Shown here piece after piece: positions 13,287 through 47,157 of a DNA stretch of 64,000 nt (positions are counted from its first letter, which is position 1; every line of letters begins with the position of its first letter). The notes beneath the pieces were generated by a model, which searched no databases, was not told where the DNA came from, and saw only the letters and a program-made list of their open reading frames with translations. This DNA is from Phycisphaerae bacterium (lineage in GTDB: Bacteria > Planctomycetota > Phycisphaerae > SM23-33). The translations under genes were made by a program, and so were the position numbers. Location of the stretch: positions 2,911-66,910 of the forward strand of contig WRDM01000011.1 in assembly GCA_009783465.1 (NCBI GenBank), read 5' to 3'.

Positions 13287-13501
13287 GCGATGTCAGATCG
13301 ATGTACGTTTTGCCGGCAGGAACGTTCTACAGCGCAAAACGGCAAGCCGCTGAAAACGCGTGTGGTGTAAAACAAAAAAGTTTTGCGAGTGCGGCAACTC
13401 GCGTCGCGCTCTCGCAAAACTCTCCTTTAAAACTCGGTGTCTCGATGGGCGCCTCAGGGGCGCCCTGGGAGGCATCGTGGCCGGTGCGTAGCTCCCAGGC
13501 C

Positions 13502-15394
13502 TTACGCGGCCTTGTTGGCGACGATGCTCGAAAAGTACTGTTGGAACTGGGCGACGGTGATGGTGATCAGGCCGTCGTTGGGGTTGTTGTCGTATTTCAC
13601 GCCGTCGTAACCCCAGGGGTTGTACACGGTGACGGTCTGCACGCCGTTGACGTCCTGGACGCTCACGATCATGTAGGCGTGCGAGCCGATGATCGGGCCT
13701 TGGCTGGCGGTGGTGCTGGCGGCGGTGACGGCTTTGCCGTCGTTCAACTGCGTCTGGAGGAACGTGTAGACGGAGTTGACCGATCCGCCGGTGGTGCGCG
13801 TGGTCGAGGCGGTGCCGGTGATGTCGGCGTAGGCGTCGGCCATCCAGCCGCCGTTGATGGACGCGTAGCTGTTGCCGCCCGTGCGGAAGAAGGCGTACGC
13901 TTTTTCCATGACGGCGACCCAGATCGCGCCGTTGTCGCCCGGCTTGGCGTAGGCGAGTTGTCCGTTGCTGCCTACCGGCAGATCGCCGTCCACGCGGACG
14001 TAAACTTCCTTGCCGTTCTTGTAGAACCGCACGGCGTACGTGCCGTCGCCGAGGGACACGACGGCCTGCTGGATCACCATGGGGTTGGTCTCGGCCAGTG
14101 AGGCCAGCGAGGCCAGGAAGTAGCAGTCGCCCACGTTGCCCTGGTTGATGTCGGTGTAGTTTGGGCCGCCGACGAACAGCGGGCTGGAGGAGAAGTTGCT
14201 GTAGCCCTTGGCATAGCTGGTGACGATGGGGTCGCGGAAGTTTTCGCCGCCGGGGGTCAGCGGGATGTAGTCGTTCTTGTCGGACCAGGGCTGATAGAAC
14301 TCGGCGATTCGGTGGACGGCGCCGGCCTTGATTTCGGCGGCGGACGGGTCGACGATGACGTCGTTCATGTCGACCCAGTAGCTGTTGAATCCGCCGCCCG
14401 CGGTGATGATGGACTGCCCGCCGCCCACGGCGACGTAGAGGTCGTCGCCCAGGCCGCCGAACGCCCAGATCGTGTTGGAGCCGGCCAGGTAATAGGTGTC
14501 GTTGCCTTCGCCGCCGTAGATGCATCCCATGGCCGTCACGGTGGCGGTGAACTGGATGGTGTCGTTGCCTTCGAAGCCGTACACGACGATGCTGGTGAAC
14601 TCGCCGTTGAAGACGAAGGTTTCCGTCGCCGTCGTCAGCGTGAGCGTGTTGAGCGTCTGCGAGAGCACGATGGTGTCGTTGCCGCTGGTGCCGACGACGA
14701 TCAGTTGCAGGCCTGCCCCGGTGTTGATTACTTCGGTCGTGATGGTGTTGGAGGGCGTCGCAATGAAGTCCGGGATGGTGAAGCCCGGCAGGCCCGGCCT
14801 ATTGGTTTCGGGCGGCGTGGGTTTGGAAGGTTCCGGCCCCGGTTCCGGCGCGGGCGGCGGCGACGGCGGTGTCGGTGGCGTGGGCGGTTCGACCGGTGTT
14901 GGAGGCGCTGGTGGCTCGATTGGCGCCGGCGGCACGGAGGGCGTCGAAACCGGCGCGGTGATTTTCGACCGCACCAGTTTGTACTTGGCGCCGTTGGCGC
15001 ACTCGGCCTGGATGTAGTACGTCTGGTCGGCTTCCACCTGGATCGTGAGGTACACGGAGGCGTTGTTGTCGCCCATGACCACCTGGCCGTTGGCGTTGCG
15101 GACCGTCAGCTTGGCGTCGACCCCGTTGTCCTGTCCGTTGGGGAGGATCGAAATCGTCACCGTGCCGGCCGTCTTGGCGGTGAAGGCGAACACGTTGTTT
15201 CTCGAGGCCAGCATGTTGAAGAGGATCGTTCCGGTGGCGCTGGCGGTGAATTGGTATTCCGGCCTGCTGTTGCTCTGGACATCGGCGGGCGCGGACGGGC
15301 CATGGAAGTAAACGTCCTCAACCGGTTCCGACGTCACGCCGCTCAGCAGCAGGCGGGGTTCGAGGGCTTCGAAGGCGTTATGCGGCAGCGTCAT
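13502..15394 (-). CDS. Secreted calpain-like cysteine protease (peptidase C2) with PPC-like domain, P/T-rich linker and RTX-type Ca-binding repeats
   Basis: ATG at 15394 gives MTLPHNAFEALEPRLLLSG. The calpain catalytic motif QGNVGDCYFLASLASLAE is present, with His (SHAYMIV) and Asn (NPWG). GGxGxD-like repeats occur (GTSGNDTI, GFEGNDTI, GGEGNDTY, GGLGDDLY). The linker is PPAPIEPPAPPTPVEPPTPPTPPSPPPAPEP. Confidence 0.8.
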   Translation of the reverse strand: MTLPHNAFEALEPRLLLSGVTSEPVEDVYFHGPSAPADVQSNSRPEYQFTASATGTILFNMLASRNNVFAFTAKTAGTVTISILPNGQDNGVDAKLTVRNANGQVVMGDNNASVYLTIQVEADQTYYIQAECANGAKYKLVRSKITAPVSTPSVPPAPIEPPAPPTPVEPPTPPTPPSPPPAPEPGPEPSKPTPPETNRPGLPGFTIPDFIATPSNTITTEVINTGAGLQLIVVGTSGNDTIVLSQTLNTLTLTTATETFVFNGEFTSIVVYGFEGNDTIQFTATVTAMGCIYGGEGNDTYYLAGSNTIWAFGGLGDDLYVAVGGGQSIITAGGGFNSYWVDMNDVIVDPSAAEIKAGAVHRIAEFYQPWSDKNDYIPLTPGGENFRDPIVTSYAKGYSNFSSSPLFVGGPNYTDINQGNVGDCYFLASLASLAETNPMVIQQAVVSLGDGTYAVRFYKNGKEVYVRVDGDLPVGSNGQLAYAKPGDNGAIWVAVMEKAYAFFRTGGNSYASINGGWMADAYADITGTASTTRTTGGSVNSVYTFLQTQLNDGKAVTAASTTASQGPIIGSHAYMIVSVQDVNGVQTVTVYNPWGYDGVKYDNNPNDGLITITVAQFQQYFSSIVANKAA

Positions 15395-15736
15395 GGCCTC
15401 AGAGTCTTTCTCGCGATTGCGGGTTAGGCCTCTGAGGCAGTGAAGGTTGTGTGTGTGTGGAACGGTGTACGAAATCCGATCCAACAGGAGAACCGTACGA
15501 TTCAGCCGGGGACGATGCAAATGTCACTTTACCACGGATCCCGAAAATTCCGCAGGGTTCCCCGTTGTCCCCGAGCGACTTCCCGATTCACCGACGCAGA
15601 CACCCCGTACGCGACGAGGGAATTGTAGGAGGGTCGGGACGTTTTTTATCAAAACCTAGCCCCGCGGGTCGGGTTAAAGTGTACAAGGGCCTTGCCGAGG
15701 GCTTATCGTGTCGGCACTGGGCGGATGGGCGATCGT

Positions 15737-17407
15737 ATGAACATAGTTGACATATTGCTGGAAAAGAATCTTGTGACGGCCGAGCAGGTCGCCGAGGCGA
15801 TGGACCTTCGCACAACGTCGGGCCTGCGGCTGGACCGCGCGCTGGTCAAGCTGGGGTACATTCGCGAGGAGCGGCTATTGGCCGAGACGAGCGAGCGGCT
15901 GGGGATCCCGCTGGTGGATTTGTCCACGGCGAAGATCGACGTGGAGACGCTGCGCAACCTCCCGCCGAAGCTGATGTACCGCAAGCACCTGCTGCCGATC
16001 AGCCGGGCCAACGGCACGCTGACGGTGGCGACCAGCGACCCGTTCGATCTCTACGCGTTCGACGAACTCAAGCTGCTGACGGGCTTGGAAATTCAGCCGG
16101 TGCTCGCGCTGGAAGACGAGATCGACAAGCACATCAAAATGCATTACGGCGTCGGTGGCGACACGATCGACGAGATGATGTCCACCGACGATCTCGAGGT
16201 CATCGGCGACCAGGACGGCGCCAAGGACGAAGATCTCGAGATGGCCCAGGAAGCCAGCGTCATCAAGCTGGTCAACGAACTGTTCCTGGAGGCCATCAAC
16301 GAACGCGCCACCGACATCCACATCGAGCCCTACGAGCACGACCTGCACATCCGCTACCGCATCGACGGCGTGCTGCAATTGGCGACGCTGCCGCCGCAGA
16401 TCCGGCGATTCCAGGCCGCCATCATCAGCCGCATCAAGATCATGTCCAACATGAACATCGCCGAGAAGCGGCTGCCGCAGGACGGGCGCATCAAGCTGGT
16501 CGCCGGCGGCAAGCAGTTGGACGTCCGCGTCAGCGTGATTCCGATGCTCTACGGCGAGGGCATCGTGATGCGTCTGCTCAATAAGAGCACCACGATGTAC
16601 ACCCTGCCGCAACTGGGCATGGGCGAGGACACGTTCGAAATTTTTGGCCACCTGATCGACCGCCCGCACGGCATTCTGCTGGTGACGGGTCCGACCGGCA
16701 GCGGCAAGACGACGACGCTGTACGCGGCCTTGTCGGCGATCATCTCTCCGGAGATCAAGGTGCTCACGGTGGAAGAGCCGGTGGAGTATCACCTTGAGGG
16801 CGTCAATCAGATTGGCGTCAACAGCAAGATCGGCATGACGTTCGCGCGGGCGTTGCGTGCGATTCTGCGTCACGACCCCGACGTGGTGATGATCGGCGAG
16901 ATTCGCGACCTGGAGACGGCCGAGGCGGCGATTCAGGCGGCGCTGACGGGCCACCTCGTGCTCAGCACGCTGCACACCAACGACGCGTGCTCGGCGGCGA
17001 CGCGGCTGCTGGACATGGGCATCGAGCCGTTCCTGGTGACGAGCACGATGGAGGCGGCGATGGCGCAGCGGCTGGTCCGCACGATCTGCTCGGAATGCAA
17101 GGAACCGTACGAGCCCGACGGCGAGACGCTGCCCGCGGATCTTGGCTATCAAAAGGGCGAGATTTTTTATCGAGGCCGCGGGTGCCGGAAATGTCATAAT
17201 ACGGGCTACTACGGCCGATGCGGGCTGTTCGAGTTGATGGTGACCAGCGACGCGATTCGCGAGTGCATCATGGCCCGCCGCCCGGCGAGCGACATCGTGA
17301 ACATCGCCCGCCGCGAAGGGCTGCGGCTGCTGCGCGAAGACGGCTGGATCAAAGTCCGCCAGGGCGTGACCACGCCCGAGGAAGTGATGCGGTGTACGAA
17401 GATGTGA
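15737..17407 (+). CDS. gspE: Type II secretion / type IV pilus assembly ATPase (GspE/PilB family)
   Basis: ATG at 15737. There is an N-terminal T2SSE_N/MshEN-like domain, Walker A GPTGSGKTTT, a Walker B/Asp box (VMIGEIRD), a His box (LVLSTLHTND) and a tetracysteine motif (CSECKEP...CRKCHNTGYYGR). Confidence 0.9.
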   Translation: MNIVDILLEKNLVTAEQVAEAMDLRTTSGLRLDRALVKLGYIREERLLAETSERLGIPLVDLSTAKIDVETLRNLPPKLMYRKHLLPISRANGTLTVATSDPFDLYAFDELKLLTGLEIQPVLALEDEIDKHIKMHYGVGGDTIDEMMSTDDLEVIGDQDGAKDEDLEMAQEASVIKLVNELFLEAINERATDIHIEPYEHDLHIRYRIDGVLQLATLPPQIRRFQAAIISRIKIMSNMNIAEKRLPQDGRIKLVAGGKQLDVRVSVIPMLYGEGIVMRLLNKSTTMYTLPQLGMGEDTFEIFGHLIDRPHGILLVTGPTGSGKTTTLYAALSAIISPEIKVLTVEEPVEYHLEGVNQIGVNSKIGMTFARALRAILRHDPDVVMIGEIRDLETAEAAIQAALTGHLVLSTLHTNDACSAATRLLDMGIEPFLVTSTMEAAMAQRLVRTICSECKEPYEPDGETLPADLGYQKGEIFYRGRGCRKCHNTGYYGRCGLFELMVTSDAIRECIMARRPASDIVNIARREGLRLLREDGWIKVRQGVTTPEEVMRCTKM

Positions 17408-21614: not shown

Positions 21615-24600
21615 ATGCGACAGTCGAAGATCGTCTTCCTGACCATGGCGTTTTTGGTGATCGTGGGCGTGGCGTCGGTGGTGGCGCAAGAGGCCGCCGA
21701 GCCGGCAGCGCAACCCGCTCCCGCCGAACAACCCGCCGCCGCGCCGGCCGAACAGCCCGCGCCGGCCGCGCCGGAAGCCGCTCCTGCGCCCGCGCCGGAA
21801 GTCAAGCGCGACTACCAGTTCCAATACAACGGCGTGCCCTACGCCGAAGTGGTCCGGCGGTTCGCGCAGGCGGCCAAAAAACCGATCCTCGGCGACGTTC
21901 CCGTCGAGGGCCATCTGACGTTCTTCGACAGCGAATCCTACACCTACGAAGAAGCGTTCGAGATGCTCAACACGCTGCTGGCGATGCGCGGGGCGAGCAT
22001 CATCGAACAAGGCCGCTTCATCCGCTGCATGCCCACGCCGATGCTGAACGCGAAAATCTACACCGGCACGGAAAAAACCGAAAACATCAAGCCGACCGAA
22101 ATCGTCACCGTACTGCTGCCGCTGAAATACCTCGACGCCGAAGTCGCCGCCAAAACCGCCATCCGCATGGTCAGCTCGTACGGGTCGGTCGCGCCGATGA
22201 GCCGAGGCCGAGGCGTCGTCATCACCGATCACATGGGCAACATCCAGCGGGTCAAAGTTCTGTTCGACGAAATGGACCGCGACTCGTTCTCGTCGCAGCA
22301 GGTTCGCTCGTTCGCGCTCAAGCAGGCGCAGGCGCGCAACATCGTCAACGTCGTCAACCAGCTGTTCATGTGGAAGGGCGACCCGACCAAGATGCCCGAC
22401 GACTGGGCGTTTGCCGCCTCCGACGACCGCTCCAACACGCTGGTGCTGATCGGCGTCGGGCCCAAGCTCGCGCTGGCCGAGGACATGGTCACGCAGCTCG
22501 ACAGCGGCGGCCCGCGCGAAGGCGACATGAAGGTGTACGATCTCAAGAACGCCAAGGCCGAGTCGCTGGCCAACTCGGTGCGGCAGGCGCTGACGACCAA
22601 TCGCGACGCCGCGGGCATCAGCGTGGTGGGCGACCCGGGGTCGAACCGGCTGATCGTGGCCGTCCCGCCGAATATGATCAAGCAGGTCGACGCGATGGTG
22701 GAGCAGCTCGACGTGAGCGCGACGAGCGTGGCGTCGGGGTTCCGCGTGTTTCGGCTGACGAAGGCCGACGCGAACCAGATGGCCAATGTGATGCAGCAAC
22801 TCATGCACCGCGCCCGCGATCCGCGGACGGGCGTTCAGCCGGCGGCGGTGATGGCCGACGGGCCGACCAACAGCGTGATCATCAGCGGCCTGGCGGCGGA
22901 CATTGAGTTGGCAACGGCCGTCATCCAGGAACTGGACATGGGCGAGGACGGCCTGTCGCGCGACGTGCAGGTCGTGCCCCTCAAGAACGGGCGCGGGCAC
23001 GAAACGGCGAACATGATCCGCCAACTCTTCACGCAGCAGCGGCAGGGTCAGCCCGGCGCGTCCAGCCTGCGCGTGGAGTCTGACCCCACCGGCGGCAGCC
23101 TGATCATCTCCGCCAGCCCCGGCGACTGGCAACTGATCCAGGAAATCCTCAGGAAAATCGAAGTGAACGGCCCGGCCGCGTCCATCGTGACGCGCATGGT
23201 GGCCGTCAAAAACATCCGTCCCGGCGAGCTGGCCGGGTCGCTGCACCACGTGTTCAATTCGCGTCCCCGGCCCGTGCCGGTGGTGTTCGCGCCGTCGGAC
23301 CGGACCAGCACGATGCTGGTCTCCGCGCCGCTGGAAGAACAGGATGCGATCGCCGACATCATTCGCTCGCTCGACGTCGGGCCCGACGCGCCCCGCGAGG
23401 ACGTGACGATCGTCAACCTCACCAGCAGCGACGCGCGCCAATTGGCCGAGACGATCCGGCAGATGATTCCGCACGACATGCACGGCCGCATTCAGGTCGT
23501 CGGCGACTGGATGAGCAACAGCGTGGTGCTGCGCGCTCCCGACAGCGATCGGGAGTCGATGGTGAAGATCATCCGGGATTTGGACGTGCCGATTCAGAAG
23601 GAAGTCAGCCAGGTCCAGACCGTCCAGGTGCAGCACGTGCACGCGTCGCAGTTGGCGGGGTCGTTGATGCAGATTTACGGCCGCCAGCAGAACCAGCAGC
23701 GAGGTCAGCGTCAGGGCGGCGGCTCGCTGGTGATGGTGGCGGCGGCGGACCTGGTGATCGTTCCCACCGGCGAAAAGGCATTGATTGTCAAGGCGTCGCC
23801 GTCGGAGATGGAACAGGTTCTGGCGATGATCAAGCAGTTGGACGTTCCCGGCGGCGCGTCCACGTCGGGGATGCGGGTGATTCAGTTGAAGTCGGGCGAG
23901 GCGTACCGCGTGGCGGACGTCATTCGCGGCATGATTCCGCACGAGTTGCACGGGCAGATGCAGGTGGTGGCGGATCCGGGCAGCAACAGCGTGGTCATTC
24001 GCGGCCCCGAGTCGGTCCGGCAGGCGATGGAAGATGTGGTGGCCACGCTCGACGCGACGGCGCGTCAGGGCATGCGGCAGACGCGGCTGATCAAGGTCGA
24101 GCACGTCGCGGCGTCGCAGGCGGCGGAGACGTTGCGGCAGTTGTACGTCAACCGGTCGGGCGACCACTCGCAGCAGGTGATGGTGGCGGCGGCGCCGGGC
24201 GACAAGCAGTTGATCATCGACGCGCCGGACAGCCTGGTGGAAGCAGTCGCGCAGATGGCGACCAGTCTGGACGTGGCCGAGTCGGTGACCGCGCAATCGG
24301 TGCGCGTGTACACGCTCTCGTCGGGGTCGGCGCCGGAGATTGCGCAGTCGCTGGGCCGGCTGTATCAGCAGCGTGACGGCGGCGACCGGCGAGGCCAACC
24401 GCCGCCCCCGCGGTTCGAAGCCAGCGCCACCAGCAACCAGGTGATCGTGTCGGCCAGCGAGGAGCAGTTCAAGGTCGTCGACGAATTGCTCAAGCAGATG
24501 CAGGACGTTCCGGCGGCGTTGGCGTCGGACACGAAGACATTCAAACTTCAATACGCCAAGGCCCGCGATCTGGCGCCCGTGCTGCAAAACATGCTCCAGG

Positions 24601-27600
24601 GCAACACCAACGTCGGTGGCGGCCAATGGCAGCAGCAGCCTCAGTGGCAGCCGCCGCAAGAGGGTGGCGGCGAGAACCAGTGGCAGCCGCGGCCCCGATA
24701 CCAGCCGCGTAGCGACAGCAGCGCGCCGTTCCGCGTGGCGGCGTTGGAGAGCAACAACACGCTGATCGTTCAGGGCACGGCGGACAAGCTGGCGCTGGCC
24801 GAGCAGTTGATCCAGACGTTCGACGTGGACGTCAACGACACGGAGAAGGCGACGATTCAGATTATCGGCCTCAAGAACGCCAAGGCGGATTCGCTCGCCG
24901 AGAGCATCAACCGGACGCTGGCGGATCAAGCCCAGCAGCGTGGCGCGGGCACGCGGGTGACGGTCACGCCCGAGATGAACACCAACAGCCTGCTGGTGCG
25001 GGGCCTGCCCGCGGACATCGACAACGTGCTCGCGATGGTGCAGCAGTTGGACGTCGACGGCGAAGCCCGCGTGGAGATGAAGGTCTATCGGCTGGAAAAC
25101 AGCGACGTGGCGGACATCGAGAAGGTGATGAGCAAGCTGCTGGGCGACATTACGCGGATGGGCGCCAGCAATCGTCGCCAGGGCGGCGGGGGCGAGAGCG
25201 GCTATAGCGTTACCGCCGACGAACGCACCAACAGCCTGATCGTCTTCACGACGGCGGCGAATTTCAAGGTCATCGAGACGCTGCTGGCCGACCTGGACAA
25301 AGGCCCCGAGGACATCACGCCGCGGAAGCAGCGCGAGATCCATTTCGCCTGGCTGGAGAATCAGAAGGCCCGCGACGTGGTGGCGAAACTCGAAGCGATG
25401 TACCGCGACCGCAAGCCCGCCGACCGGCCTTATATCGAACCGGACTCGTTCTTCAACACCATCACGCTCATCGCCGAAGAAGCCGACATCAAGCAGATGA
25501 TGGAGATGATCGACAAGTTCGACAGCCAGCCGGTCAAGAGAAACCTCCAGGTCAAGGTCTTCCCGCTGCTGGCCATGCGGGCGGACCGAATGGCCGACGC
25601 GATCGAACGCGTCTACAGCCAGATGACCGACGCGAAGATCACCGTGACGGACCGCATCCCCGGCCGAAGCATGCCGCGATACCCGCAGGACAAGCCCGGC
25701 GACAACCGAGTCCCCAACGGCGGCGCGAACGGCCATCCGGTCGAGCAGCCGAATCCTTCGCAGCCCGAACCGCAGTCCGAACCCCATCACGCCGATCCGG
25801 GCGGCGACGTGGGCGTGGAAATTCTGCCGTCGCTGCTGGAGATGATGAGCGAACCCGCCCTGGCCGACGCGGACGACACCGGGCCGGCGATTACGATTTC
25901 GGTGGACTCCGAATCCAACTCGCTGGTCATCGCCGCGACGCGGGAAGAGTTGCAGGAAATCGAGCGGTTCATCCAGGATCTGACCACCAGCACGTCCACG
26001 AGCGAGATGGACATACGATACTACAAGGTTAAGAGCGCCGACGTGACGGCCATTGCGCACACGCTGGACCTGTTGTTCAACCCGCAGTCGGCGGGGCGGA
26101 ATCCGCAGGCCGGTGGTCAGGCCGCCCGCACGGGGCGCCGCGGCGGCAACCCGGGCAATCCGCAGCCGGACCCCAACCAGCCGCCACAGGACCCCAACAA
26201 TCCGCAGCCTCAGCCGGCGCCGCAACCGGTTCCGGCGCCCAATGTCATCCTCGTGCCGTACGCGCGGACCAGCATGCTGATCGTCCGCGCCAAGCCGGCG
26301 GAGTTCGACATGATCGAAGTGTTGCTGGATACGCTGGACAGACCGTCGGGCGTTCTGACGGATATGCGTATCTTCACGCTCAAGAACGTCACCGCGAACG
26401 AGGTGGCCGCCAACGTGCGGGATCTGTTCCAGCGTGCCTCGGCCAGCGTGGGCGATGGCGGCGAGGCGGCTCCGCCCGCCAACGGCAACGAGCAGCGCGA
26501 GGAGATGATCCGCCAGCAGCTCGAATTGCAGGCCAGCGGCGGCGGGGGCGGAGGCAACATCAGCGTCACCGCCAACCAGCAGAGCAACAGCGTGATCGTG
26601 GTGGCTTCGCCGGAGAACCTGCGGATCGTCGAGAGGCTGATCAATGAACTGGATCAATCCGCCGGCGGGAGGACCGTCGTGGTGCGGCTGTATCCGGTGC
26701 GGGCGGGCAACGCGGAGGCGGTGGCCAACTCGCTACGTCAGGCGTTCGGCACGGGCGGGAATTTCGCCAATCCCGGCGGACGTCGGGGCGGCGTCGGGGC
26801 GGTCGCGATGGCGGACTCGGCGTTTAGCATCAGCGCCAACGAGGAGTCGCGCGTCGTCATCGTGTCGGCTGACCCCGACAAACACGAACTGGTCCAGAAG
26901 GTGCTCGACGAACTGAACGCCGCCGCGGAGGCCGCGGGAGCGAGCGTGGTTCATGTGTATCGGCTCGACAACGCCGTCGCGCAAGGCGCCGCCGGCGCGC
27001 TGCGGGAAGCGGTGAGCAACAACCGCTCCATCCGCATCAGCGCCGACAACAGCAACAACAGCATCATCATCAACGCGCCGGAGGCCGAACACGAACGGCT
27101 GGCCGCCCTGATCGCGGACATCGACAAGCCCATGACGTCGGTGCCGGATGTGCGGACGATCGTGCTCCGAAACGCCGATCCGACGGCCACGGCGAACAAT
27201 CTGACGCGGATTTTCTCGCAGCAGCAACAGCAGGCCGGACCTCGCCGGGGCAACGTCATCGGGCAGGGGCTGGCGATCGAAGTGGACATCGAGAGCAAGA
27301 CGCTCATGGTCCGTTCCGACGAGGAGACGTTCGAGAAGGTCCGCCAGTTGGCCTCCCACCTCGACGCCACCAGCCCGCGCGGCCGGAGCAAACAGCACGT
27401 CTTCACGCTCCAGTACGCCGACGCGATCAGCATCGCGCCGAGCATGACCCAGGCCTTCGCCCCGCAGCCGGGCGTGCGACTGTCGCCCGACGACTTCGTG
27501 CAGATCGTGGCCGAAGCGAATTCCAACAGCCTCATCGTCACCGCCAACGAGACCAACATCGAGAAGGTCATCACGCTGATCGCCAAGATCGACACGGAGA

Positions 27601-30600
27601 CCACAGGCGGTAACCGCAACGAACTGCTGGTGCTCGCCAACGCCAAGTCGGCCGACATGGTGAACACGCTGCGCACCGTCGCCGCCAACGTGCCGCGCGG
27701 GAAAACGCCGGTCGTCGTCTCGGCCGACGAAGGCTCGAACGCGTTGATTTTTGCCGGCCCCGGCGGCGAATTGGACAAGTTGATCAAGATGGCGATGCAG
27801 TTGGATCAGGCGTCGTCCGCGGGCGCGGGCACGATGGGCGTGTACGTGATGGCGCTGGAAAACGGCCAGGCGGTCGACATGGCCACGAAGGTCCGCGACC
27901 TGTACAACCAGCAGGCCAACGCCGCCCGCGCGCAGCGGAAGTCGATTGATCCGCTGGCCGTGACGGCGGATGACCGCGCCAACGCGCTGATTCTGGCGAC
28001 CACGAAGGACATGTACGAGCAGGTCAACGGATGGGTGAGCCAGTTGGAAAAAATCACCCCCGCCAAGGGCACGCTGCGCGTGATCACCGTGCCCAACGCC
28101 GATCCGCTGGAGGTCGAACGGGCCATTCAGCAGTTGTACGGCGGGCAGGGCCCCGGCAGGCCGTCGCGAATTGGCGATCCGGACGAAGAGGAAGAAGAAC
28201 CGACGACCCAGCCGACCAGTCAGCCGGCGCAGGAAGACGATCCGCAGGCCCAGCCGCAGATTCAACCGCAGGTCGTCGCGCCGCCGCTGGCCGCCGAACC
28301 GGCAGCGCTGCCGGCTGGCCGAGGCGGGACGGTCTCCACCACCGTCTTCCCGCAGCAGCGGACTATTTTTGTCACCGCCGCCGACGAGGATTTCGAAGCC
28401 ATTCAAGCGCTCGTCAAGGCGATGGACGACGCGGCCGCCAAGAGCCGACAGGGCGTGCAGTTGTTCGTGCTCAAGCACGCGGACACGCAGCAGATGGCCC
28501 AGTCGCTCAACAACGTGTTCAATCGTCTTGCCCGGCGGCAGGAGGATCTCGTGATCGCCACGCCGATCCAGGGCACGCGGGCGATCGTGGTGGCGGCGAC
28601 GGAGGCGAAGATGAAGGAAGCCTCCGCCCTCATCGAGCAGATGGACAGCGAAGCCCTCAGCCCGAAGGTGGAGTTCCGCGTCTATCCGCTCAAGAACGCC
28701 AATCCCGCCCGGCTGCTGCCGACCGTGCAGGGCATGTTGTCGCAGCTTCAGCGGGCGCGGACGGGCGAGCAGATCACCGTCAGCGCCGACGAGCGCACGC
28801 GCAGCCTGATCGTGACGGCCAGCGCGAGCGTGTTCAACCAGATCGACAACATTATTGAGACGCTCGACCAGACGCCGCAGTATGAGAAGGTCGAGGTGCT
28901 GATCCTGCCGCTCAAGACGGCGGAAGCGTCGCGGCTGGCGGTCGTGCTGACGCAGATGCTCACGCCCGGCAGCGACGGCCAGGCGTCGCAGCAGGCCCGC
29001 GCGTTGCAGGAACAGATTCGCCTGCTCCGCATCCGCTCGACGGTGCAGGATCAGGTGCCGGAGCTGGATTTGTCTCAGCCGATCAAGATCACCGCCGACG
29101 GCGCGGCGGGGTCGAACTCGCTGGTCATCACGTCGACGGCGAATAATCTCAAGGCGATGGCTGCTGTCGTGGAAATGATGGACCGTCTGCCGGTGAGCGA
29201 GGGCGTGATGGTGCGCGTGGCGCATCTGGAGCACGCCGACGCGGCCACGGTGATGGCGGTGCTGCGGAGTATCTTCGATCAGGGTCAGCGGCTGACGAGT
29301 CGGGTTCCCGGCGGCCGGGCCGAGCCGACGACCGCCAGCGGCAAGGCGTTGACGAGTCCGCTGAACATCGCCGTCGACGCCCGCACGAACACGCTGATTT
29401 TAGCTGGCGTCGAGGAAAGCGTCGCGCTGGCGGAGATCGTGCTGCGGGATCTCGACCGCGAGAACGCCAAGTTCACCACGGAAGTCCGGCTGTTCCAGGT
29501 GAAGAACGTCTCGGCGGTTTCGTTGTCCAACATGGTCCGCTCGGTGTTCGCCGAAGGCGCCGCCGTCGGCGGCAGCGAAGGACTCAACACGCAGGTCACG
29601 CGGCTCAAGCTGGTTCTGGAGCAAGCGGTCGAGAAGCCCGAAGACGGCAAGGACGAACCGGGCGACGAACAGAACGAGGCCGCGCCCACGCCGCCTGCCA
29701 CGGAGCGTTCGACGGCGATTGCCAAGTCGCGTCCCGCGCTGACAGTGCAGGCCGACCCGACGAGTAACATTATTATTGTGGCTGCCCGGTCGGATATCAT
29801 GCCGCTGATCGCCGACGTGATTTCGACGATGGACCTCGCCGGCGCCGCCACCGGGCCGAACGATGTTCGCATTCTGCCGCTGACCCACGCCGACGCGTCG
29901 CGGTTGCAGCAGATGATCATGACGATTTACACCTCCGGCCCGGCCGCGGTGCAGATCCGCGCCGAGGACAGGCCGACCATTGTCATCGACACGCGCACCA
30001 ACGCGCTGGTCGTTTCCGCGACGGAGAAAACCGTCGCGGCGGTGGAGGCGTTGGTGGCCCGGCTGGACACCAAAAGCGACGTCGAGCAGCTCGACGTCCG
30101 GTTGTTGAAGATCGAGCACGTGGACGCCGCGGAAGTGGGCGGCACGGTGCAGCGGATCATGGACGCCCGCGTGCAGCGGCTGGTCTCGCAGGGCGTGCGC
30201 GACGCCGACGCCGCCCGCGTCACCATCGTCGCCTACGCGCGGAGCAACAGCCTCATCATCGGCGGGTCGGCCGAAGGGTACGAACTGATCAAGACGATCG
30301 TGTCGCAGCTCGACACGGAAGAACCGGCGCTGGCGGGACAGATTCAGCTCATCCCGCTGACCAACGCCAACGCGGCCACCATCGCGGGAAGTCTGTCGAA
30401 TCTGTTCAACCAGCGTTACCAGGCCGTGCGAAGTGCCGAACTGGCGCGGCAGCGGCCGATCATCATGAGCGACGTGCGGTCCAACAGTTTGATGGTTGTC
30501 GCCAATGCCGACGACAGCAAACTGCTGACGGGCCTGCTCGAAAAACTCGACATCAAGCTGACCGATGCCGCCGTCGGCATTCACGTGGTGCCGATGCAGA

Positions 30601-33560
30601 ACATGGACGCCGCCGTCGCCGCGCCCATGATTCAGAATGTGTTCAACGCCCGCCTGACGGCTGCCACGCCGCCGGGCCAGCCGATTCAGCCGCAGGACCG
30701 CGTCACGGTCCAAATCGAGCCGCTGTCGAACTCGCTGCTGGTCGTCTGCTCGAAGGAGAACCTCGAACTGCTCGGCGACCTGTTGGACAAGGTGGACGTC
30801 GAGCCGGCCGTTGCCGACGGCGTGGTGGAGATCATCGAACTGAAGAACGCCACGGCGGACAACGTGCGGGCGCTGCTGCAAACCCTCATCAGCCAGGGGC
30901 TGTACAAACCCGGCACGAGCGGGACCGTCAGTGCGGCGCAGGCGGCGAGAGAGAAGGTGACGATCGTCGCCGAGTCGCGGTTGAACCTGTTGCTGGTGTC
31001 GGCCAGCAAGGAGAACCTTGCGATTGTCAAGCAGTTGGTCACGACGTTGGACGACAACAAGTTGCAGCAGGGCGACATCCGCATCTTCACGATCAAGAAC
31101 GCCAACGTGACGCAGTTGACGCCGACGCTGGTGCAGTTCTTCAATCAGAAGCTCCAGGCCGAGCGGACGGTCAACCCGTCGGTCGCCACCTCGACGATGC
31201 CGCTGGTGGCCGTCCCCGACGTCCGCACCAACACGCTGCTGGTGGCGGGTGGGAAGGAAAACTTCGACTTCGTGGAGAAGATGCTCGAACAGCTCGACGG
31301 TCCCGGCGCCGCCGCCAATGAATTCCGGCGGTTCCAACTGGAGAACGCGACGGCGGCGACGCTTCAGCCGACGTTGCAGAGCCTGTTCACGCAGCGGCTT
31401 GCGACCGGAAAGAGCAAAGAGGCCGTCTTCATCTTCCTGGACGCGGTCAGCAACGCGATGTTGATCGGTGCCAGCCCGGAGGACATGGCGTTCGCCGCGG
31501 ACATCATCGCGCTGATGGACGTCAAATCCGAGGCTCCCGACGCGACGAAGATTTTCCCGCTGACGTACGCGAATTCGGCCTCGCTGGTTCCGGTGCTTCA
31601 GAGCCTCCTTCGCGCCGGAACGACGGTGGCAGCCGTCGCCGTCACCTCCGATGAGCGGACCAACTCCATCCTGGTGACAGCCGGCACGGCGGATCTCGAA
31701 CGCGTCGCGGATCTGATCGGTAAACTGGACATCGCCGAGACGCTCACGAACGTGGCGGAAATGCGTATATTCCAACTCATGTACGCCGACGTGACCGAAC
31801 TGGCGACCACGCTGCGCGAAGCGCTCAACAACCGCCCAGCCGCCACGCCGGGGTCCAGCGCCAACCGGGCGATCCTGCTCCAACTGGTGACGCGCTCGGC
31901 GGAGGGGCAGGACCTGATCATCAGCGCCCTCCAGCAGGGCGTGCAGTTGACGCCAGACCGTCGGACGAACATGCTGATCGTCACCGCGCCGAAAGAGAAC
32001 ATGCCGGTGCTGGAGACGATTATCAAGGCGCTGGACACGGTCAGCCCGACGCAGGTGGAAATCAAGATGTTCACGCTCAAGAACGCTGCCGCCCGACAGA
32101 TGGCGCAGATGCTCACGGAGCTGTTCCGGCTGGACAACACGAACAACCGCAACGTCCAGTTGATGATGCCGGGCCTGGTGGCGATGCCGGGCGGCGTGGC
32201 GGCCCCGGTGGCCGTGCCGGGCGTCGAGGGCGACGCGGCCGCTGGCACCGCCGGCGAACCGGTGCTCGCCGTGACGGTCGATCCGCGAACCAACAGCCTG
32301 CTGGTCGCCGGCACGAAGGCGTATCTGGAAATGGCCACGCAGGTCATCGAGGAACTCGACAACCAGACCGAGACCGAACGCAAGATGGAACTGTTCCGCA
32401 TGCGGAACAGCCAGGCGGCCGACATCGAGACGGCCCTGCGGAGTTTCCTCGACCGCGAGCGGCAGACGCTGACGTCGACGCTGGGCACCGATGCCGTCGG
32501 GGCGGCCGACCGGCTGCTGGAACGTGAAGTGATCGTCGTGGCCGAGCGGGCGACCAACACGCTGCTGGTGTCGGCCAGTCCGCCGTATTTCGATCGGATC
32601 GCCGAGATCATCCGCGAACTCGACAAGGCGCCGCCGCAGGTGCTCATCCAGGTGCTGCTGGCCGAAGTGACGCTCGACAACTCCATGGACCTGGGCATGG
32701 AGTGGACGCACACGACCACCGCCAACGGGCACGCGGTCAGAACGGGCACGGACTTCGGCCTGTCCGCCCAGGCGAACGGCTTCTCGCTGTCGGTGACGGG
32801 CGACAACCTCAACCTGTTCCTGCGGGCGCTGCAAAGCCAGGGCCGCGTCGAGGTGCTCAGCCGGCCTCAGATTCACGCCACCGACAACATGAACGCGGAG
32901 ATCAACGTCGGCCAGGAGGTGCCCTTCATCCGCGACACCCGCGTGGACGTCAACGGCGGCATCTACAACACGATCCAGTACGAGACGGTGGGCGTGATTC
33001 TGAACCTCACGCCGCGCATCAACCACGAAGGCCAGGTCAAGCTCGACGTCGCGCCGGAAGTCAGCTCGCTCTCGACCTCCAGCGTCCAGGTCGGCAACGG
33101 CGTGTACATGCCGATTATCAACACCCGCAAGGCCAAAACGACCGTCACCGTGCAGGACGGCCATTCGGTGATCCTCGGCGGGCTGATCACCGCCCACGAC
33201 GAAAAACGCGACGAGAAGGTGCCCGTCCTGGGCGACATCCCGCTGCTGGGCTGGTTCTTCAAACATCAGAAGACCGTCAAGCAGCGGACGGAACTGCTGA
33301 TCATCCTGACGCCGCACGTGATTCGGAACAACGATGACACCGACAAGATGACCGACGAGCAGATCGAAAAGATGAACCTGCTCCGGCAGATGCGTGCGGG
33401 CATGAGTCGGATTGGCGACCCGTCGCTGGTGCCGGCTACCATGCCCGCCAGCGGGCAGGCGCCGATGCTCCAGGAGACCCCGCGCACCGGCGGCAACACG
33501 CAGGAGGAACTGGACCAGCTCAACACGGCTCCGGTGCGGATCGACGCGCATGCGCGGTGA
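21615..33560 (+). CDS. Giant secretin (3,981 aa): signal peptide, N0-like domain, about 40 tandem secretin N-domain repeats, C-terminal secretin pore domain
   Basis: aaggag lies upstream of ATG 21615. The signal peptide is MRQSKIVFLTMAFLVIVGVASVVAQ. The C-terminus carries secretin-domain motifs (VLIQVLLAEVTLD, LQSQGRVEVLSRPQI, VGVILNLTPRI, PIINTRKAKTTV, VPVLGDIPLLGWFFK, ELLIILTPHVI). The repeat unit follows the pattern [VI]x[VI][FY]xLKNAxAxxL...V.AD.RTNSLIV......I..LI..LD. Confidence 0.9.
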   Translation: MRQSKIVFLTMAFLVIVGVASVVAQEAAEPAAQPAPAEQPAAAPAEQPAPAAPEAAPAPAPEVKRDYQFQYNGVPYAEVVRRFAQAAKKPILGDVPVEGHLTFFDSESYTYEEAFEMLNTLLAMRGASIIEQGRFIRCMPTPMLNAKIYTGTEKTENIKPTEIVTVLLPLKYLDAEVAAKTAIRMVSSYGSVAPMSRGRGVVITDHMGNIQRVKVLFDEMDRDSFSSQQVRSFALKQAQARNIVNVVNQLFMWKGDPTKMPDDWAFAASDDRSNTLVLIGVGPKLALAEDMVTQLDSGGPREGDMKVYDLKNAKAESLANSVRQALTTNRDAAGISVVGDPGSNRLIVAVPPNMIKQVDAMVEQLDVSATSVASGFRVFRLTKADANQMANVMQQLMHRARDPRTGVQPAAVMADGPTNSVIISGLAADIELATAVIQELDMGEDGLSRDVQVVPLKNGRGHETANMIRQLFTQQRQGQPGASSLRVESDPTGGSLIISASPGDWQLIQEILRKIEVNGPAASIVTRMVAVKNIRPGELAGSLHHVFNSRPRPVPVVFAPSDRTSTMLVSAPLEEQDAIADIIRSLDVGPDAPREDVTIVNLTSSDARQLAETIRQMIPHDMHGRIQVVGDWMSNSVVLRAPDSDRESMVKIIRDLDVPIQKEVSQVQTVQVQHVHASQLAGSLMQIYGRQQNQQRGQRQGGGSLVMVAAADLVIVPTGEKALIVKASPSEMEQVLAMIKQLDVPGGASTSGMRVIQLKSGEAYRVADVIRGMIPHELHGQMQVVADPGSNSVVIRGPESVRQAMEDVVATLDATARQGMRQTRLIKVEHVAASQAAETLRQLYVNRSGDHSQQVMVAAAPGDKQLIIDAPDSLVEAVAQMATSLDVAESVTAQSVRVYTLSSGSAPEIAQSLGRLYQQRDGGDRRGQPPPPRFEASATSNQVIVSASEEQFKVVDELLKQMQDVPAALASDTKTFKLQYAKARDLAPVLQNMLQGNTNVGGGQWQQQPQWQPPQEGGGENQWQPRPRYQPRSDSSAPFRVAALESNNTLIVQGTADKLALAEQLIQTFDVDVNDTEKATIQIIGLKNAKADSLAESINRTLADQAQQRGAGTRVTVTPEMNTNSLLVRGLPADIDNVLAMVQQLDVDGEARVEMKVYRLENSDVADIEKVMSKLLGDITRMGASNRRQGGGGESGYSVTADERTNSLIVFTTAANFKVIETLLADLDKGPEDITPRKQREIHFAWLENQKARDVVAKLEAMYRDRKPADRPYIEPDSFFNTITLIAEEADIKQMMEMIDKFDSQPVKRNLQVKVFPLLAMRADRMADAIERVYSQMTDAKITVTDRIPGRSMPRYPQDKPGDNRVPNGGANGHPVEQPNPSQPEPQSEPHHADPGGDVGVEILPSLLEMMSEPALADADDTGPAITISVDSESNSLVIAATREELQEIERFIQDLTTSTSTSEMDIRYYKVKSADVTAIAHTLDLLFNPQSAGRNPQAGGQAARTGRRGGNPGNPQPDPNQPPQDPNNPQPQPAPQPVPAPNVILVPYARTSMLIVRAKPAEFDMIEVLLDTLDRPSGVLTDMRIFTLKNVTANEVAANVRDLFQRASASVGDGGEAAPPANGNEQREEMIRQQLELQASGGGGGGNISVTANQQSNSVIVVASPENLRIVERLINELDQSAGGRTVVVRLYPVRAGNAEAVANSLRQAFGTGGNFANPGGRRGGVGAVAMADSAFSISANEESRVVIVSADPDKHELVQKVLDELNAAAEAAGASVVHVYRLDNAVAQGAAGALREAVSNNRSIRISADNSNNSIIINAPEAEHERLAALIADIDKPMTSVPDVRTIVLRNADPTATANNLTRIFSQQQQQAGPRRGNVIGQGLAIEVDIESKTLMVRSDEETFEKVRQLASHLDATSPRGRSKQHVFTLQYADAISIAPSMTQAFAPQPGVRLSPDDFVQIVAEANSNSLIVTANETNIEKVITLIAKIDTETTGGNRNELLVLANAKSADMVNTLRTVAANVPRGKTPVVVSADEGSNALIFAGPGGELDKLIKMAMQLDQASSAGAGTMGVYVMALENGQAVDMATKVRDLYNQQANAARAQRKSIDPLAVTADDRANALILATTKDMYEQVNGWVSQLEKITPAKGTLRVITVPNADPLEVERAIQQLYGGQGPGRPSRIGDPDEEEEEPTTQPTSQPAQEDDPQAQPQIQPQVVAPPLAAEPAALPAGRGGTVSTTVFPQQRTIFVTAADEDFEAIQALVKAMDDAAAKSRQGVQLFVLKHADTQQMAQSLNNVFNRLARRQEDLVIATPIQGTRAIVVAATEAKMKEASALIEQMDSEALSPKVEFRVYPLKNANPARLLPTVQGMLSQLQRARTGEQITVSADERTRSLIVTASASVFNQIDNIIETLDQTPQYEKVEVLILPLKTAEASRLAVVLTQMLTPGSDGQASQQARALQEQIRLLRIRSTVQDQVPELDLSQPIKITADGAAGSNSLVITSTANNLKAMAAVVEMMDRLPVSEGVMVRVAHLEHADAATVMAVLRSIFDQGQRLTSRVPGGRAEPTTASGKALTSPLNIAVDARTNTLILAGVEESVALAEIVLRDLDRENAKFTTEVRLFQVKNVSAVSLSNMVRSVFAEGAAVGGSEGLNTQVTRLKLVLEQAVEKPEDGKDEPGDEQNEAAPTPPATERSTAIAKSRPALTVQADPTSNIIIVAARSDIMPLIADVISTMDLAGAATGPNDVRILPLTHADASRLQQMIMTIYTSGPAAVQIRAEDRPTIVIDTRTNALVVSATEKTVAAVEALVARLDTKSDVEQLDVRLLKIEHVDAAEVGGTVQRIMDARVQRLVSQGVRDADAARVTIVAYARSNSLIIGGSAEGYELIKTIVSQLDTEEPALAGQIQLIPLTNANAATIAGSLSNLFNQRYQAVRSAELARQRPIIMSDVRSNSLMVVANADDSKLLTGLLEKLDIKLTDAAVGIHVVPMQNMDAAVAAPMIQNVFNARLTAATPPGQPIQPQDRVTVQIEPLSNSLLVVCSKENLELLGDLLDKVDVEPAVADGVVEIIELKNATADNVRALLQTLISQGLYKPGTSGTVSAAQAAREKVTIVAESRLNLLLVSASKENLAIVKQLVTTLDDNKLQQGDIRIFTIKNANVTQLTPTLVQFFNQKLQAERTVNPSVATSTMPLVAVPDVRTNTLLVAGGKENFDFVEKMLEQLDGPGAAANEFRRFQLENATAATLQPTLQSLFTQRLATGKSKEAVFIFLDAVSNAMLIGASPEDMAFAADIIALMDVKSEAPDATKIFPLTYANSASLVPVLQSLLRAGTTVAAVAVTSDERTNSILVTAGTADLERVADLIGKLDIAETLTNVAEMRIFQLMYADVTELATTLREALNNRPAATPGSSANRAILLQLVTRSAEGQDLIISALQQGVQLTPDRRTNMLIVTAPKENMPVLETIIKALDTVSPTQVEIKMFTLKNAAARQMAQMLTELFRLDNTNNRNVQLMMPGLVAMPGGVAAPVAVPGVEGDAAAGTAGEPVLAVTVDPRTNSLLVAGTKAYLEMATQVIEELDNQTETERKMELFRMRNSQAADIETALRSFLDRERQTLTSTLGTDAVGAADRLLEREVIVVAERATNTLLVSASPPYFDRIAEIIRELDKAPPQVLIQVLLAEVTLDNSMDLGMEWTHTTTANGHAVRTGTDFGLSAQANGFSLSVTGDNLNLFLRALQSQGRVEVLSRPQIHATDNMNAEINVGQEVPFIRDTRVDVNGGIYNTIQYETVGVILNLTPRINHEGQVKLDVAPEVSSLSTSSVQVGNGVYMPIINTRKAKTTVTVQDGHSVILGGLITAHDEKRDEKVPVLGDIPLLGWFFKHQKTVKQRTELLIILTPHVIRNNDDTDKMTDEQIEKMNLLRQMRAGMSRIGDPSLVPATMPASGQAPMLQETPRTGGNTQEELDQLNTAPVRIDAHAR
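22098..32630 (+). other. Array of about 40-41 divergent secretin N-domain (NolW-like / ring-building motif) repeats within the giant secretin
   Basis: I read 40 consecutive units ending ...NSLIV...LD (for example DDRSNTLVLIG, DPGSNRLIVAV, DERTNSLIVFT, DARTNTLILAG, DPRTNSLLVAG, ERATNTLLVSA), plus one N1-like unit at the start (RGRGVVITDHMGNIQRVKVLFDEMD). The mean spacing is about 86 aa. Confidence 0.8.
32631..33326 (+). other. Secretin (beta-barrel pore) domain of the giant secretin
   Basis: The region PPQVLIQVLLAEVTLDNSMDLGMEW through RTELLIILTPHVIR has the canonical motif order of GspD/PilQ secretin C-domains. Confidence 0.85.
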
Positions 33561-33584: not shown

Positions 33585-33882
33585 GTGAAGATGGGCCGCT
33601 TGTTGCAGGGAATCAAAGCCACTAGCCACAAGCCACTAGCGACAAGGGCTTGCGAGGCGTGACGGTGAAATTGTTCCTCGCTGTGGCGAGAGAGGTCTCG
33701 ATGCTTCGCGGACGCGGAGATCGGCGGGAGCGTCCATGTTGGCCGATGATCGAGTCAGCGGAGCATCGGGACCACTCTCTCGAACGGGATGTTCATGTTT
33801 ACAGTGATGCACCGAAAACCGTTGTCGCTTGTCGCTTGTGGCTAAAACGATTCCCTCGAACCCGCGGTGCATTTTCACCGTC
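33585..33882. repeat. About 298-bp structured repeat (gccacta/gccacaa 7-nt arms plus conserved core), copy 1 of a direct pair
   Basis: It starts gtgaagatgggccgcttgttgcagggaatcaaagccactagccacaagccactagcgacaagggcttgcg and ends gcattttcaccgtc. The core gtggcgagagaggtctcgatgcttcgcgga...gaccactctctcgaacgggatgt is shared with 34458-34750. It begins 25 nt after the secretin stop. Confidence 0.85.
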
Positions 33883-33912
33883 GGGCACACGGAGATGACA
33901 GCGAGGTTACAT

Positions 33913-34434
33913 ATGGCTATGCGAAACCTGTTCATCGTCGCGGGCGTCGCGGCGATGCTGGCGGCGGGCGGATGCGGCGATCAGCCGGCGGGCGTCACGC
34001 CGGCCGGTGCGCCGACGCCTGTGCAGGCGGTGGACGAGGTGATGCTCATCACGTCGCCGGCGGCCATCAGCGCCGACGGCACGGCCAGGCCCGACAGCTT
34101 CACCGCCGGCGTGTGGTTTTTTTCCAACAGCCGGGGCGCGAAGTTGCCGCCCACGCTGGTGCGAGGCCGCGTCGAGATCCTGATGTACGACGGCGCCTTG
34201 TCGGCCAACGCGTTGCGGACCGCCACGCCGCTGCACGTGTGGGAATTCCCCGACGACCAGTTGCCGCAGTACGTCGGCAAGCATCGCTATTACGGCTGGG
34301 GGTACAATTTCCTGCTGTCGTGGGGCAACGACGTGCCCACCCAGGACCGCATCACGGTCATCGTCCGCTTCACGGGCGGCGGCCGGACAATTGAGTCGAA
34401 ACCATCGACCGTCACCGTGCGGGACCTGAAGTGA
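33913..34434 (+). CDS. Small lipoprotein of unknown function (positional pilotin candidate)
   Basis: ATG at 33913 gives MAMRNLFIVAGVAAMLAAGGCGDQ, a signal peptide with lipobox LAAGGC. The protein is 173 aa with no recognisable domain. The gene is flanked by direct copies of a roughly 295-bp repeat. Confidence 0.55.
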   Translation: MAMRNLFIVAGVAAMLAAGGCGDQPAGVTPAGAPTPVQAVDEVMLITSPAAISADGTARPDSFTAGVWFFSNSRGAKLPPTLVRGRVEILMYDGALSANALRTATPLHVWEFPDDQLPQYVGKHRYYGWGYNFLLSWGNDVPTQDRITVIVRFTGGGRTIESKPSTVTVRDLK

Positions 34435-47148: not shown

Positions 47149-47157
47149 ACGTGAAAA

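Follow-up and report, generated by a model that had tools for sequence, protein, structure and literature searches.

A giant secretin with forty tandem N-domain units in a type II secretion-like gene cluster of a Phycisphaerae bacterium

The Secretin Locus

The 64,000 nt stretch of DNA analysed here (the window) is taken from contig WRDM01000011.1 of a Phycisphaerae bacterium (assembly GCA_009783465.1, forward strand, positions 2,911 to 66,910). It carries a type II secretion system (T2SS) cluster in the order gspE, gspG, a GspL/PilM-like gene, a PilO/GspM-like gene, a secretin gene and a gene for a small candidate lipoprotein (Table 1). The secretin gene, the subject of this report, encodes 3,981 amino acids (aa), about 420 kDa at full length, laid out as a signal peptide, a Pro/Ala-rich linker, N0, N1, 40 tandem N-domain units, the pore, and a C-terminal helix and tail. 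Judged by its sequence, the product is the GspD-type secretin predicted to form the outer-membrane pore of a type II secretion-type machine.

Table 1. Features of the giant secretin and its gene cluster, with the small-protein homologues at related loci. Positions are those of the window unless a related locus is named; aa, amino acid positions in the secretin (or, in the last column, in the protein of that row); ORF, open reading frame; TM, transmembrane segment; self-HMM, hidden Markov model built from the secretin's own units; AF2, AlphaFold2.
Feature	Position	Strand	Evidence or remark
gspE-type assembly ATPase, 571 aa, N-terminal MshEN	15692–17407	+	T2SSE E 2.5e-135; MshEN E 1.4e-23
gspG-type major pseudopilin, 149 aa	17544–17993	+	T2SSG E 3.2e-18; N_methyl
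GspL/PilM-like bitopic inner-membrane platform protein, 764 aa	18135–20429	+	PilM_2 aa 22–224, E 9e-14
PilO/GspM-like inner-membrane protein, 351 aa	20426–21481	+	TM aa 7–30; Foldseek PilO
Giant secretin gene	21615–33560	+	Single 3,981-aa ORF, zero internal stops
Predicted Sec signal peptide	21615–21686 (aa 1–24)	+	Read from sequence, MRQSKIVFLTMAFLVIVGVASVVA followed by QE; cleavage between VVA and QE
Pro/Ala-rich linker	aa 25–62	+	Precedes N0
N0 (~aa 63–150) and N1 (~aa 163–221)	21801–22289	+	GspD alignment
40 tandem Secretin_N units (beta-alpha-beta-beta-alpha, KH-like)	22290–32636 (aa 226–3674)	+	Pfam; self-HMM
Outer-membrane pore domain	32637–33326; Pfam match aa 3738–3904	+	PF00263; PDB; Foldseek
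C-terminal tail, predicted helix (~aa 3906–3932), then disordered end and stop	33327–33560	+	AF2 secondary structure
Small candidate lipoprotein, 201-aa ORF	33829–34434	+	Lipobox LAAGGC; homologues 3′ of secretin elsewhere
Small-protein homologue, locus L001	11469–12527		
Small-protein homologue, locus L002	24811–25470		
Small-protein homologue, locus L004	25834–26349		
Small-protein homologue, locus L005	20717–21196		
Small-protein homologue, locus L006	26748–27245		

An AGGAG motif lies ~9–13 nt 5′ of the secretin ATG. The GC content at third codon positions (GC3) is 0.88, with GC1 greater than GC2, and the neighbouring genes have GC3 values of 0.79–0.88; long antisense ORFs over the gene are, by codon-position GC, the usual shadows in a genome of 64% GC. 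Pairwise identity among the 40 units averages 22% and reaches 43% at most. Tandem Repeats Finder detected only three short arrays in the secretin DNA (37–59 nt, 2.1–2.6 copies), and the longest direct repeats, of 25–56 nt, reflect no more than shared motifs, namely the conserved codons for D-x-R-T-N-S-L-I-V and L-K-N-A. An assembly stutter or a recent duplication is ruled out, because the units are only ~22% identical and no long DNA repeat is present. An earlier note on this DNA, made from the sequence alone, had described an uninterrupted frame with a good ribosome-binding site, a signal peptide and repeats too divergent for a recent duplication or stutter, and all of these descriptions stand, the signal peptide reading by inspection as one of Sec type. 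A higher-order super-repeat was also considered and rejected, as identity between units is independent of their separation.

Domain Organisation and Predicted Fold

The Pfam Secretin_N model (PF03958) matched 39 stretches of the protein (1200.7 bits), and the Secretin pore model (PF00263) matched near the C-terminus at E 7e-51 (172.6 bits, cut-off 27.5 bits). The N0 model (PF21305) matched aa 77–136 at 22.2 bits, under its cut-off of 27 bits. In sequence searches of the PDB, aa 66–322 aligned to residues 4–262 (N0-N1-N2) of Escherichia coli GspD (5wq7, E 3.6e-13), aa 77–224 matched crystal structures of XcpQ N0-N1 (E ~1e-7), and the pore domain matched 5wq7 at E 3.4e-48.

The self-HMM, built iteratively, resolved exactly 40 non-overlapping units with a mean spacing of 86.2 aa (median 79 aa) and a median gap between units of 3 aa. 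Individual units are 61–153 aa long, and the extra length lies in P/Q/G-rich loops between helix 1 and strand 2; these loops are long and disordered in units 11, 15, 16, 24 and 29, which measure 102–153 aa. The earlier note had counted 40 units plus a separate N1-like unit at a spacing of about 86 aa, between an N0-like start and a terminal secretin pore, and had proposed a scan with the Pfam Secretin, Secretin_N and N0 models. Count, spacing and pore were all recovered, and the N0 is recognised through the GspD alignment, its Pfam score being sub-threshold. Weak Pfam matches to KH_SLS1_1 and KH_DEAH11, without any significant individual stretch, raised KH-type nucleic-acid binding as a candidate function; it was rejected, because such matches are explained by the known KH-like fold of secretin N domains.

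An AF2 monomer model of aa 3201–3981 (the last six units and the pore; alignment of 61 sequences) gave a mean predicted local distance difference test score (pLDDT) of 77 and showed six beta-alpha-beta-beta-alpha units, a secretin beta-barrel and a C-terminal helix. Confidence was low only at the extreme C-terminus and in the P/Q/G-rich loops that join helix 1 to strand 2; the C-terminal helix occupies residues 706–732 of the modelled segment, and pLDDT falls below 50 beyond it. This C-terminal tail may be an analogue of the S-domain. The best Foldseek matches of the model were T2SS secretins, namely AspS-GspD (5zdh, E 6e-28), ExeD, PulD and E. coli GspD, spanning E 6e-28 to 1e-26, with type III secretion system (T3SS), type IV pilus and phage pIV secretins ranking after them.

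Assignment to the GspD Branch

Membership of the secretin superfamily and of its GspD branch is secure. NCBIfam ranks the T2SS GspD model TIGR02517 first, at 1278 bits against a cut-off of 351 bits, a score inflated because 22 stretches of the protein match repeatedly; the best of them (aa 3482–3913) covers model positions 161–600. A GspD-type N0, the domain on which the HR domain of GspC docks, is indicated by the 5wq7 and XcpQ alignments, with the Pfam N0 score at 22.2 of the 27 bits needed. The PilQ model TIGR02515 scored 408 bits, and the ATPase of the cluster is nearer to GspE than to PilB. Neither an AMIN domain (Pfam) nor a pilT gene in the window was found, and the PilM_2-like gene is the only PilQ-operon-like trait there. 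Assignment as a T3SS secretin (SctC/InvG) is not supported: the window holds no T3SS genes, and the score of TIGR02516 (376 bits) arises because pore and N domains are shared between the families. The gsp set in the window comprises gspE, gspG, the gspL/PilM-like gene and the PilO/GspM(+C)-like gene, and at two related loci (L004 and L006) it extends to E, F, G, H, J/K and PilM_2.

Among characterised proteins, the GspD secretins (GspD of E. coli and Vibrio cholerae, PulD of Klebsiella, XcpQ of Pseudomonas) share with the giant secretin a signal peptide, N0, N1, N domains and a C-terminal double-barrel pore, give the best sequence and structure match for both its ends, and are likewise accompanied by gspE, gspG and gspL/M-like genes. 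They differ in having four periplasmic domains (N0–N3) in ~650 aa, against N0 and 41 N domains in 3,981 aa. For the giant secretin a search for a recognisable S-domain or a known pilotin found neither, and their places are taken by the C-terminal helix and a conserved lipoprotein whose family lacks annotation. The largest characterised secretin that was found is PilQ of Thermus thermophilus, with six stacked rings (N0–N5) in a 350 Å complex that its authors call both 'exceptionally long' and 'one of the largest', the extra rings being interpreted as spanning most of an unusually wide periplasm (PMC5745081). It resembles the giant secretin in its extra beta-alpha-beta-beta-alpha rings, with more rings giving longer reach, but has six rings in 757 aa and serves a pilus/DNA-uptake system, compared with 42 domains and a Gsp-type context here. 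Secretins of Planctomycetia and of the Planctomycetes–Verrucomicrobia–Chlamydiae group (~1,000–1,300 aa) come from the same phylum and carry the same pore domain (31% identity), but have only 5–6 recognisable N units. One example is the 1,205-aa secretin of a Thermoguttaceae metagenome-assembled genome (MAG, locus L001), which also has a small lipoprotein gene 3′, of weak similarity.

Giant Secretins in Public Data

An exhaustive HMMER search with the C-terminal 1,200 aa against 1.84 billion cluster representatives (50% identity) returned 4,931 matches at E <= 1e-30, of which the best 150 were examined together with four cluster members. Of these relatives, 129 reach 3,000 aa or more, so that at least 129 clusters at 50% identity are of this size; the largest representative has 5,532 aa. 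By the self-HMM these 129 carry 29–57 units, length and unit number being closely correlated (r = 0.93); N0 is kept near the N-terminus in 117 of them and the C-terminal pore in 127. Larger still are two cluster members with 75 units, at 6,805 and 6,885 aa; OQB85541.1, 'Type II secretion system protein D precursor [Planctomycetes bacterium ADurb.Bin126]', is one of the pair. All members with a named taxon are Phycisphaerae/Phycisphaeraceae or unclassified 'Planctomycetes', and secretins of Pirellulales/Thermoguttaceae found in the same searches have 5–6 units and ~1,100–1,250 aa. No proteins of 10–20 units occur among the complete proteins sampled, a sample skewed to high scorers.

A comparison of secretin lengths and domain counts had been proposed in the earlier note, which judged that a conduit of 40 stacked rings, of the order of 100 nm or more, would be far beyond any described secretin. 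The protein far exceeds every characterised secretin found, yet it is not a singleton, belonging as it does to a family of at least 129 clusters. Where other secretins have 2–6 ring-building modules, this one has 41. The reach of secretins into the periplasm has been put at ~15–35 nm, and a conserved family with 29–75 ring modules would exceed this range by an order of magnitude. The new feature is this extreme multiplication of N domains; the sequences themselves are already public, and some giants are annotated as 'type II secretion system protein D' or 'secretin N-terminal domain-containing protein'.

A word-indexed search (index of 5.8 billion proteins, C-terminal 781 aa as query) returned only proteins of up to 1,362 aa, many of them fragments, and gave the impression that giants are absent from public data, which the exhaustive search of representatives overturned. 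Many entries of 800–1,360 aa (P0002, P0013, P0022 and others), named 'secretin N-terminal domain-containing protein, partial', start in the middle of a unit. These entries evidently derive from giants truncated at the ends of short contigs, and many of the 'partial secretin' records in databases probably have this origin. The window protein itself is labelled only 'hypothetical protein', being 100% identical to GenBank MCL2700846.1, 'MAG: hypothetical protein FWE88_04035 [Phycisphaerae bacterium]'; a look-up of its exact sequence among contigs gave no match.

No paper on giant secretins was found in the full-text literature, a coverage that mostly excludes subscription journals. The word 'secretin' occurs 0 times in a 2025 review of Planctomycetota (PMC12673574) and 0 times in a 2024 survey of proteins larger than 5,000 aa, and a 2024 paper on Phycisphaerae genomics mentions no secretin, secretion systems, type II, pili, periplasm or GspD.

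Conservation of Individual Units

An all-against-all comparison was made between the units of the window secretin and those of its five closer relatives (41% to ~33% identity). Nearly all reciprocal-best pairs were collinear: 32 of 32 for P0123 (32 units), 36 of 37 for P0136 (40 units), 33 of 33 for P0138 (40 units), 36 of 38 for P0126 (44 units) and 35 of 37 for P0122 (57 units). Orthologous units had a median score of 141–218 in these relatives, compared with a median of 85 for the best match of a unit to another unit of its own protein. In a sixth, more distant relative (P0199, 47 units), 12 of 18 reciprocal-best pairs were collinear, with a median score of 104.5.

Differences in length arise by insertion or deletion of blocks in the N-terminal and middle part of the array; P0123, for example, lacks window units 19–26 as one block. 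The 14 membrane-proximal units (27–40) are the best conserved, with orthologue scores of ~180–350 compared with ~90–330 (mostly <240) for units 1–26. Positional orthology of this kind across species shows an array that is ancient and has not been homogenised, with purifying selection acting on each position separately.

A Possible Envelope-Spanning Conduit

How such a protein might be arranged can be considered by analogy with solved secretins. Some 12–15 protomers would assemble side by side, and the 42 periplasmic domains would then form one ring each, stacked into a tube. A rise of 3–5 nm per ring may be taken, because the Legionella T2SS vestibule (pore and N0–N3) is ~23 nm long (10.1101/525063) and Thermus PilQ measures 35 nm with six rings. 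The tube would thus extend ~130–200 nm below the outer-membrane pore, and that of the 75-unit members up to ~300 nm. Its N-terminal N0 ring would dock on an inner-membrane platform of ordinary size, probably by contact with the 351-aa PilO/GspM-like protein through the C-terminal beta domain of the latter, and a GspG filament driven by GspE would have to traverse the whole tube in order to emerge or to expel cargo. The divergence of the units would disfavour out-of-register pairing of parallel chains during assembly, and their positional conservation would preserve specific ring-to-ring interfaces.

On balance, the arrangement slightly favoured is that the 40-unit array forms a stacked-ring conduit spanning the envelope. 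Full-span stacking agrees with the retention of the distal N0, with units that abut, with conservation at every position, and with inner-membrane partners of ordinary size. The periplasmic parts of those partners are only ~330–350 aa (~350 aa in the 764-aa protein), and the secretin itself would therefore have to bridge the gap. A broader proposal is put forward more tentatively, and is somewhat less probable than that arrangement: that Phycisphaerae build homo-oligomeric secretin nanotubes of ~100–300 nm with 29–75 stacked rings, by far the longest bacterial envelope conduits known, each ring being set by a position-specific unit of ancient origin.

Several observations weigh against this picture. 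No ultrastructure matching a tube of 130–200 nm is known, and the 2025 review notes that internal membranes, although seen in other Planctomycetota, 'appear to be absent in Phycisphaerae' (PMC12673574). Relatives have between 29 and 75 units, a 2.5-fold variation that arose through gains and losses of blocks and is hard to reconcile with a rigid spacer for a fixed gap; conservation is also lower among the middle units, in which long disordered loops occur. If the tube is closed and ~150 nm long, there is the further question of how cargo would enter and how a short 'piston' pseudopilus would serve it. Relative placement of the units in the AF2 monomer is uncertain, because its predicted template modelling score is 0.47. 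Neither gspF nor minor pseudopilin genes were found in the window, and in one distant relative (locus L002) homologues of the T2SS genes of the window are absent up to 10 kb from the secretin. The earlier note had linked the array to an unusually deep periplasm or to the crateriform structures of Planctomycetes. The former lacks support, given the reported absence of internal membranes in Phycisphaerae. As to the latter, crateriform structures with pili are credited in that review to Boedeker et al. 2017; they come from Planctopirus limnophila, a member of the order Planctomycetales (PMC11131199), whereas the named giants are from Phycisphaerae and the secretins of Planctomycetia seen in these searches have 5–6 units. 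The crateriform link is not supported.

Some of these points would suit an array that is not one straight, full tube. In such an arrangement the ~14 membrane-proximal units would form a rigid vestibule, and the rest would be flexible, extensible or folded back, as a tether, an accordion, or concentric or curved layers linking the pore to the platform across a variable or ordinary periplasm. The clearly better conservation of units 27–40 over units 1–26, the block insertions and deletions in the N-terminal and middle array, the range of 29–75 units among relatives, the long disordered P/Q/G-rich loops of the five longest units and the reported lack of extensive internal membranes (PMC12673574) all favour it. 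Even so, this arrangement is considered unlikely, if the most serious of the alternatives: the median inter-unit gap of 3 residues leaves little space for hinges, each unit position is conserved as an orthologue across species, and 117 of 129 relatives retain the distal N0, which fits an N-terminal end that has to reach the inner-membrane platform. In addition, the N domains of all solved secretins form rings (PDB matches; PMC5745081). Less probable again is that the machine is a pilus, fibre-extrusion or uptake system in which the long secretin acts as a filament-guiding sheath, and not a protein-secreting T2SS. A ~150-nm tube would need a true GspG filament in place of a ~15-subunit piston (scale from 10.1101/525063), the platform protein matches PilM_2/pilM models rather than GspL models, the ATPase scores for PilB (595 bits) and GspE (629 bits) are close and both just below their cut-offs, and the precedent for many rings, Thermus PilQ, is a pilus/DNA-uptake secretin. 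Against it, the best matches are to T2SS components throughout (GspD by TIGR02517, the GspD-type N0, GspG by TIGR01710 and the T2SS secretins of Foldseek), related operons contain genes for the minor pseudopilins GspH, GspJ and GspK and for GspF, and the AMIN domain and PilT-type retraction ATPase are missing, as noted above.

It is very improbable that the gene is an artefact, whether through mis-assembly of a repeat, through chimerism of the MAG contig or through decay into a pseudogene without functional product. Its exact sequence occurs in only one public record, a 67-kb MAG contig, but an ORF of 11.9 kb runs through it without a stop codon, its GC3 resembles that of adjacent genes, and it has no long DNA repeats able to mislead an assembler. 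Collinear orthologues with 1:1 units are present in independent assemblies (P0136 and P0138 both have 40 units), one orthologue lies on a contig of 9.18 Mb whose name carries the suffix '_c' (circular), and gene order is conserved at related loci.

If the stacked-ring conduit is correct, a ring-striated tube should be visible, its length scaling with unit number. It would imply an envelope architecture not yet seen in Phycisphaerae, for example tubes within the periplasm, membranes that separate locally or a periplasm of great depth, and a type II machine working with a long filament, which would challenge the short-piston view. The giant secretins offer a genetically defined target for cryo-electron tomography in a poorly studied class, and a natural experiment in how long tandem-domain homo-oligomers avoid out-of-register assembly.

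Neighbouring Genes and Related Loci

The ATPase scored 628.7 bits with TIGR02533 (GspE, cut-off 630.25) and 595 bits with the PilB model (cut-off 675.65). It has an MshEN domain and matches the MshE-type cyclic di-GMP-binding motif NF053729 just over the cut-off (39.7 against 38 bits), both of which suggest control of the machine by cyclic di-GMP. Orthologues of the window gspE, 71–85% identical, lie 5′ of the giant secretins at loci L004, L005 and L006. The gspG product scored 86.7 bits with TIGR01710 (cut-off 88.85), and its gene is syntenic at the same three loci.

The GspL/PilM-like protein matches TIGR01175 (pilM, E 5.5e-16) and has a cytoplasmic actin-like domain and a single hydrophobic segment (TM ~aa 393–415); homologues of 579–777 aa are syntenic at L004, L005 and L006. 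At 764 aa it is unusually long; a low-complexity P/A/T/N/G region occupies ~aa 230–300 on the cytoplasmic side, and a stretch rich in Gly, Asn and Arg (GGNQGGNPGGRGGNRGGGPGG) lies close to the C-terminus in the periplasm. The 351-aa protein is composed of an N-terminal TM segment, a ferredoxin-like domain, a Pro-rich linker and a C-terminal beta domain. Its AF2 model (mean pLDDT 64) matched PilO best by Foldseek (3jc8_Oa, E 3.5e-4; 2rjz), and aa 190–334 gave a weak NCBIfam match to GspC_delta (E 4e-4, far under the cut-off). Pfam gave no match, and a PDB profile search with its alignment gave nothing meaningful. The gene also lies directly 5′ of the secretin at L004, L005 and L006, and we hypothesise that its product is a GspM-plus-GspC-like partner of the secretin N0.

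The lipoprotein ORF has no Pfam or NCBIfam match. Its true start is probably an internal Met codon near 33913–33919, the annotated TTG lying ~28–30 codons too far upstream. Homologues with a lipobox lie directly 3′ of the secretin at L005 (44% identity, E 2e-45) and L004 (E 2e-24), and weaker matches are found 3′ of the secretin at L002 and L001 (E ~1e-5 to 1e-4, with four subject sequences only). The lipobox was seen in the copies of the window, L001, L002, L004 and L005. At L006 the homologue (tblastn, E 1e-8) does not adjoin the giant secretin gene, because an integrase and a transposase of IS91 type have been inserted between the two, at 24334–26378 of that locus. The lipoprotein is a candidate pilotin or other assembly partner, and together with the C-terminal helix of the secretin it suggests a pair resembling an S-domain and its pilotin.

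The locus with a 3,488-aa secretin (L005) has the same gene order as the window, including a divergent gene for a calpain-like protease. Those with secretins of 5,277 aa (L004) and 4,527 aa (L006) have gspE, F, G, H, (I), J/K, PilM_2 and the ~350-aa gene, followed by the secretin; the L006 contig is the one of 9.18 Mb cited above.

The calpain-family protease of the window (13502–15520, − strand; 672 aa) has a Peptidase_C2 domain (E 9e-33) and a PPC domain and is divergent from gspE. An orthologue of 59% identity occupies the same position at L005, and none is present at L004 or L006. The protease could be a secretion cargo or a processing enzyme. An ORF at 12779–14101 (+) was examined as a candidate gspF and rejected: it has no Pfam match and no genuine codon-position GC pattern, and overlaps the calpain-like gene on the opposite strand. 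About 5 kb 5′ of the T2SS genes (6705–10614, + strand) lie genes for an HTH_17 response regulator, a 734-aa histidine kinase with an HDOD domain and a GAF-domain response regulator.

Two further genes lie 3′ of the cluster. One (48292–49860, +) encodes a bacterial serpin (Pfam Serpin, E 4.5e-114) that is extended by ~140 aa at its N-terminus. The other (44548–47253, −; 901 aa) is an unusual fusion of a BPD_transp_1 ATP-binding cassette (ABC) permease and a C-terminal NHL-repeat beta-propeller, and adjoins a gene for a solute-binding protein (47346–48437).

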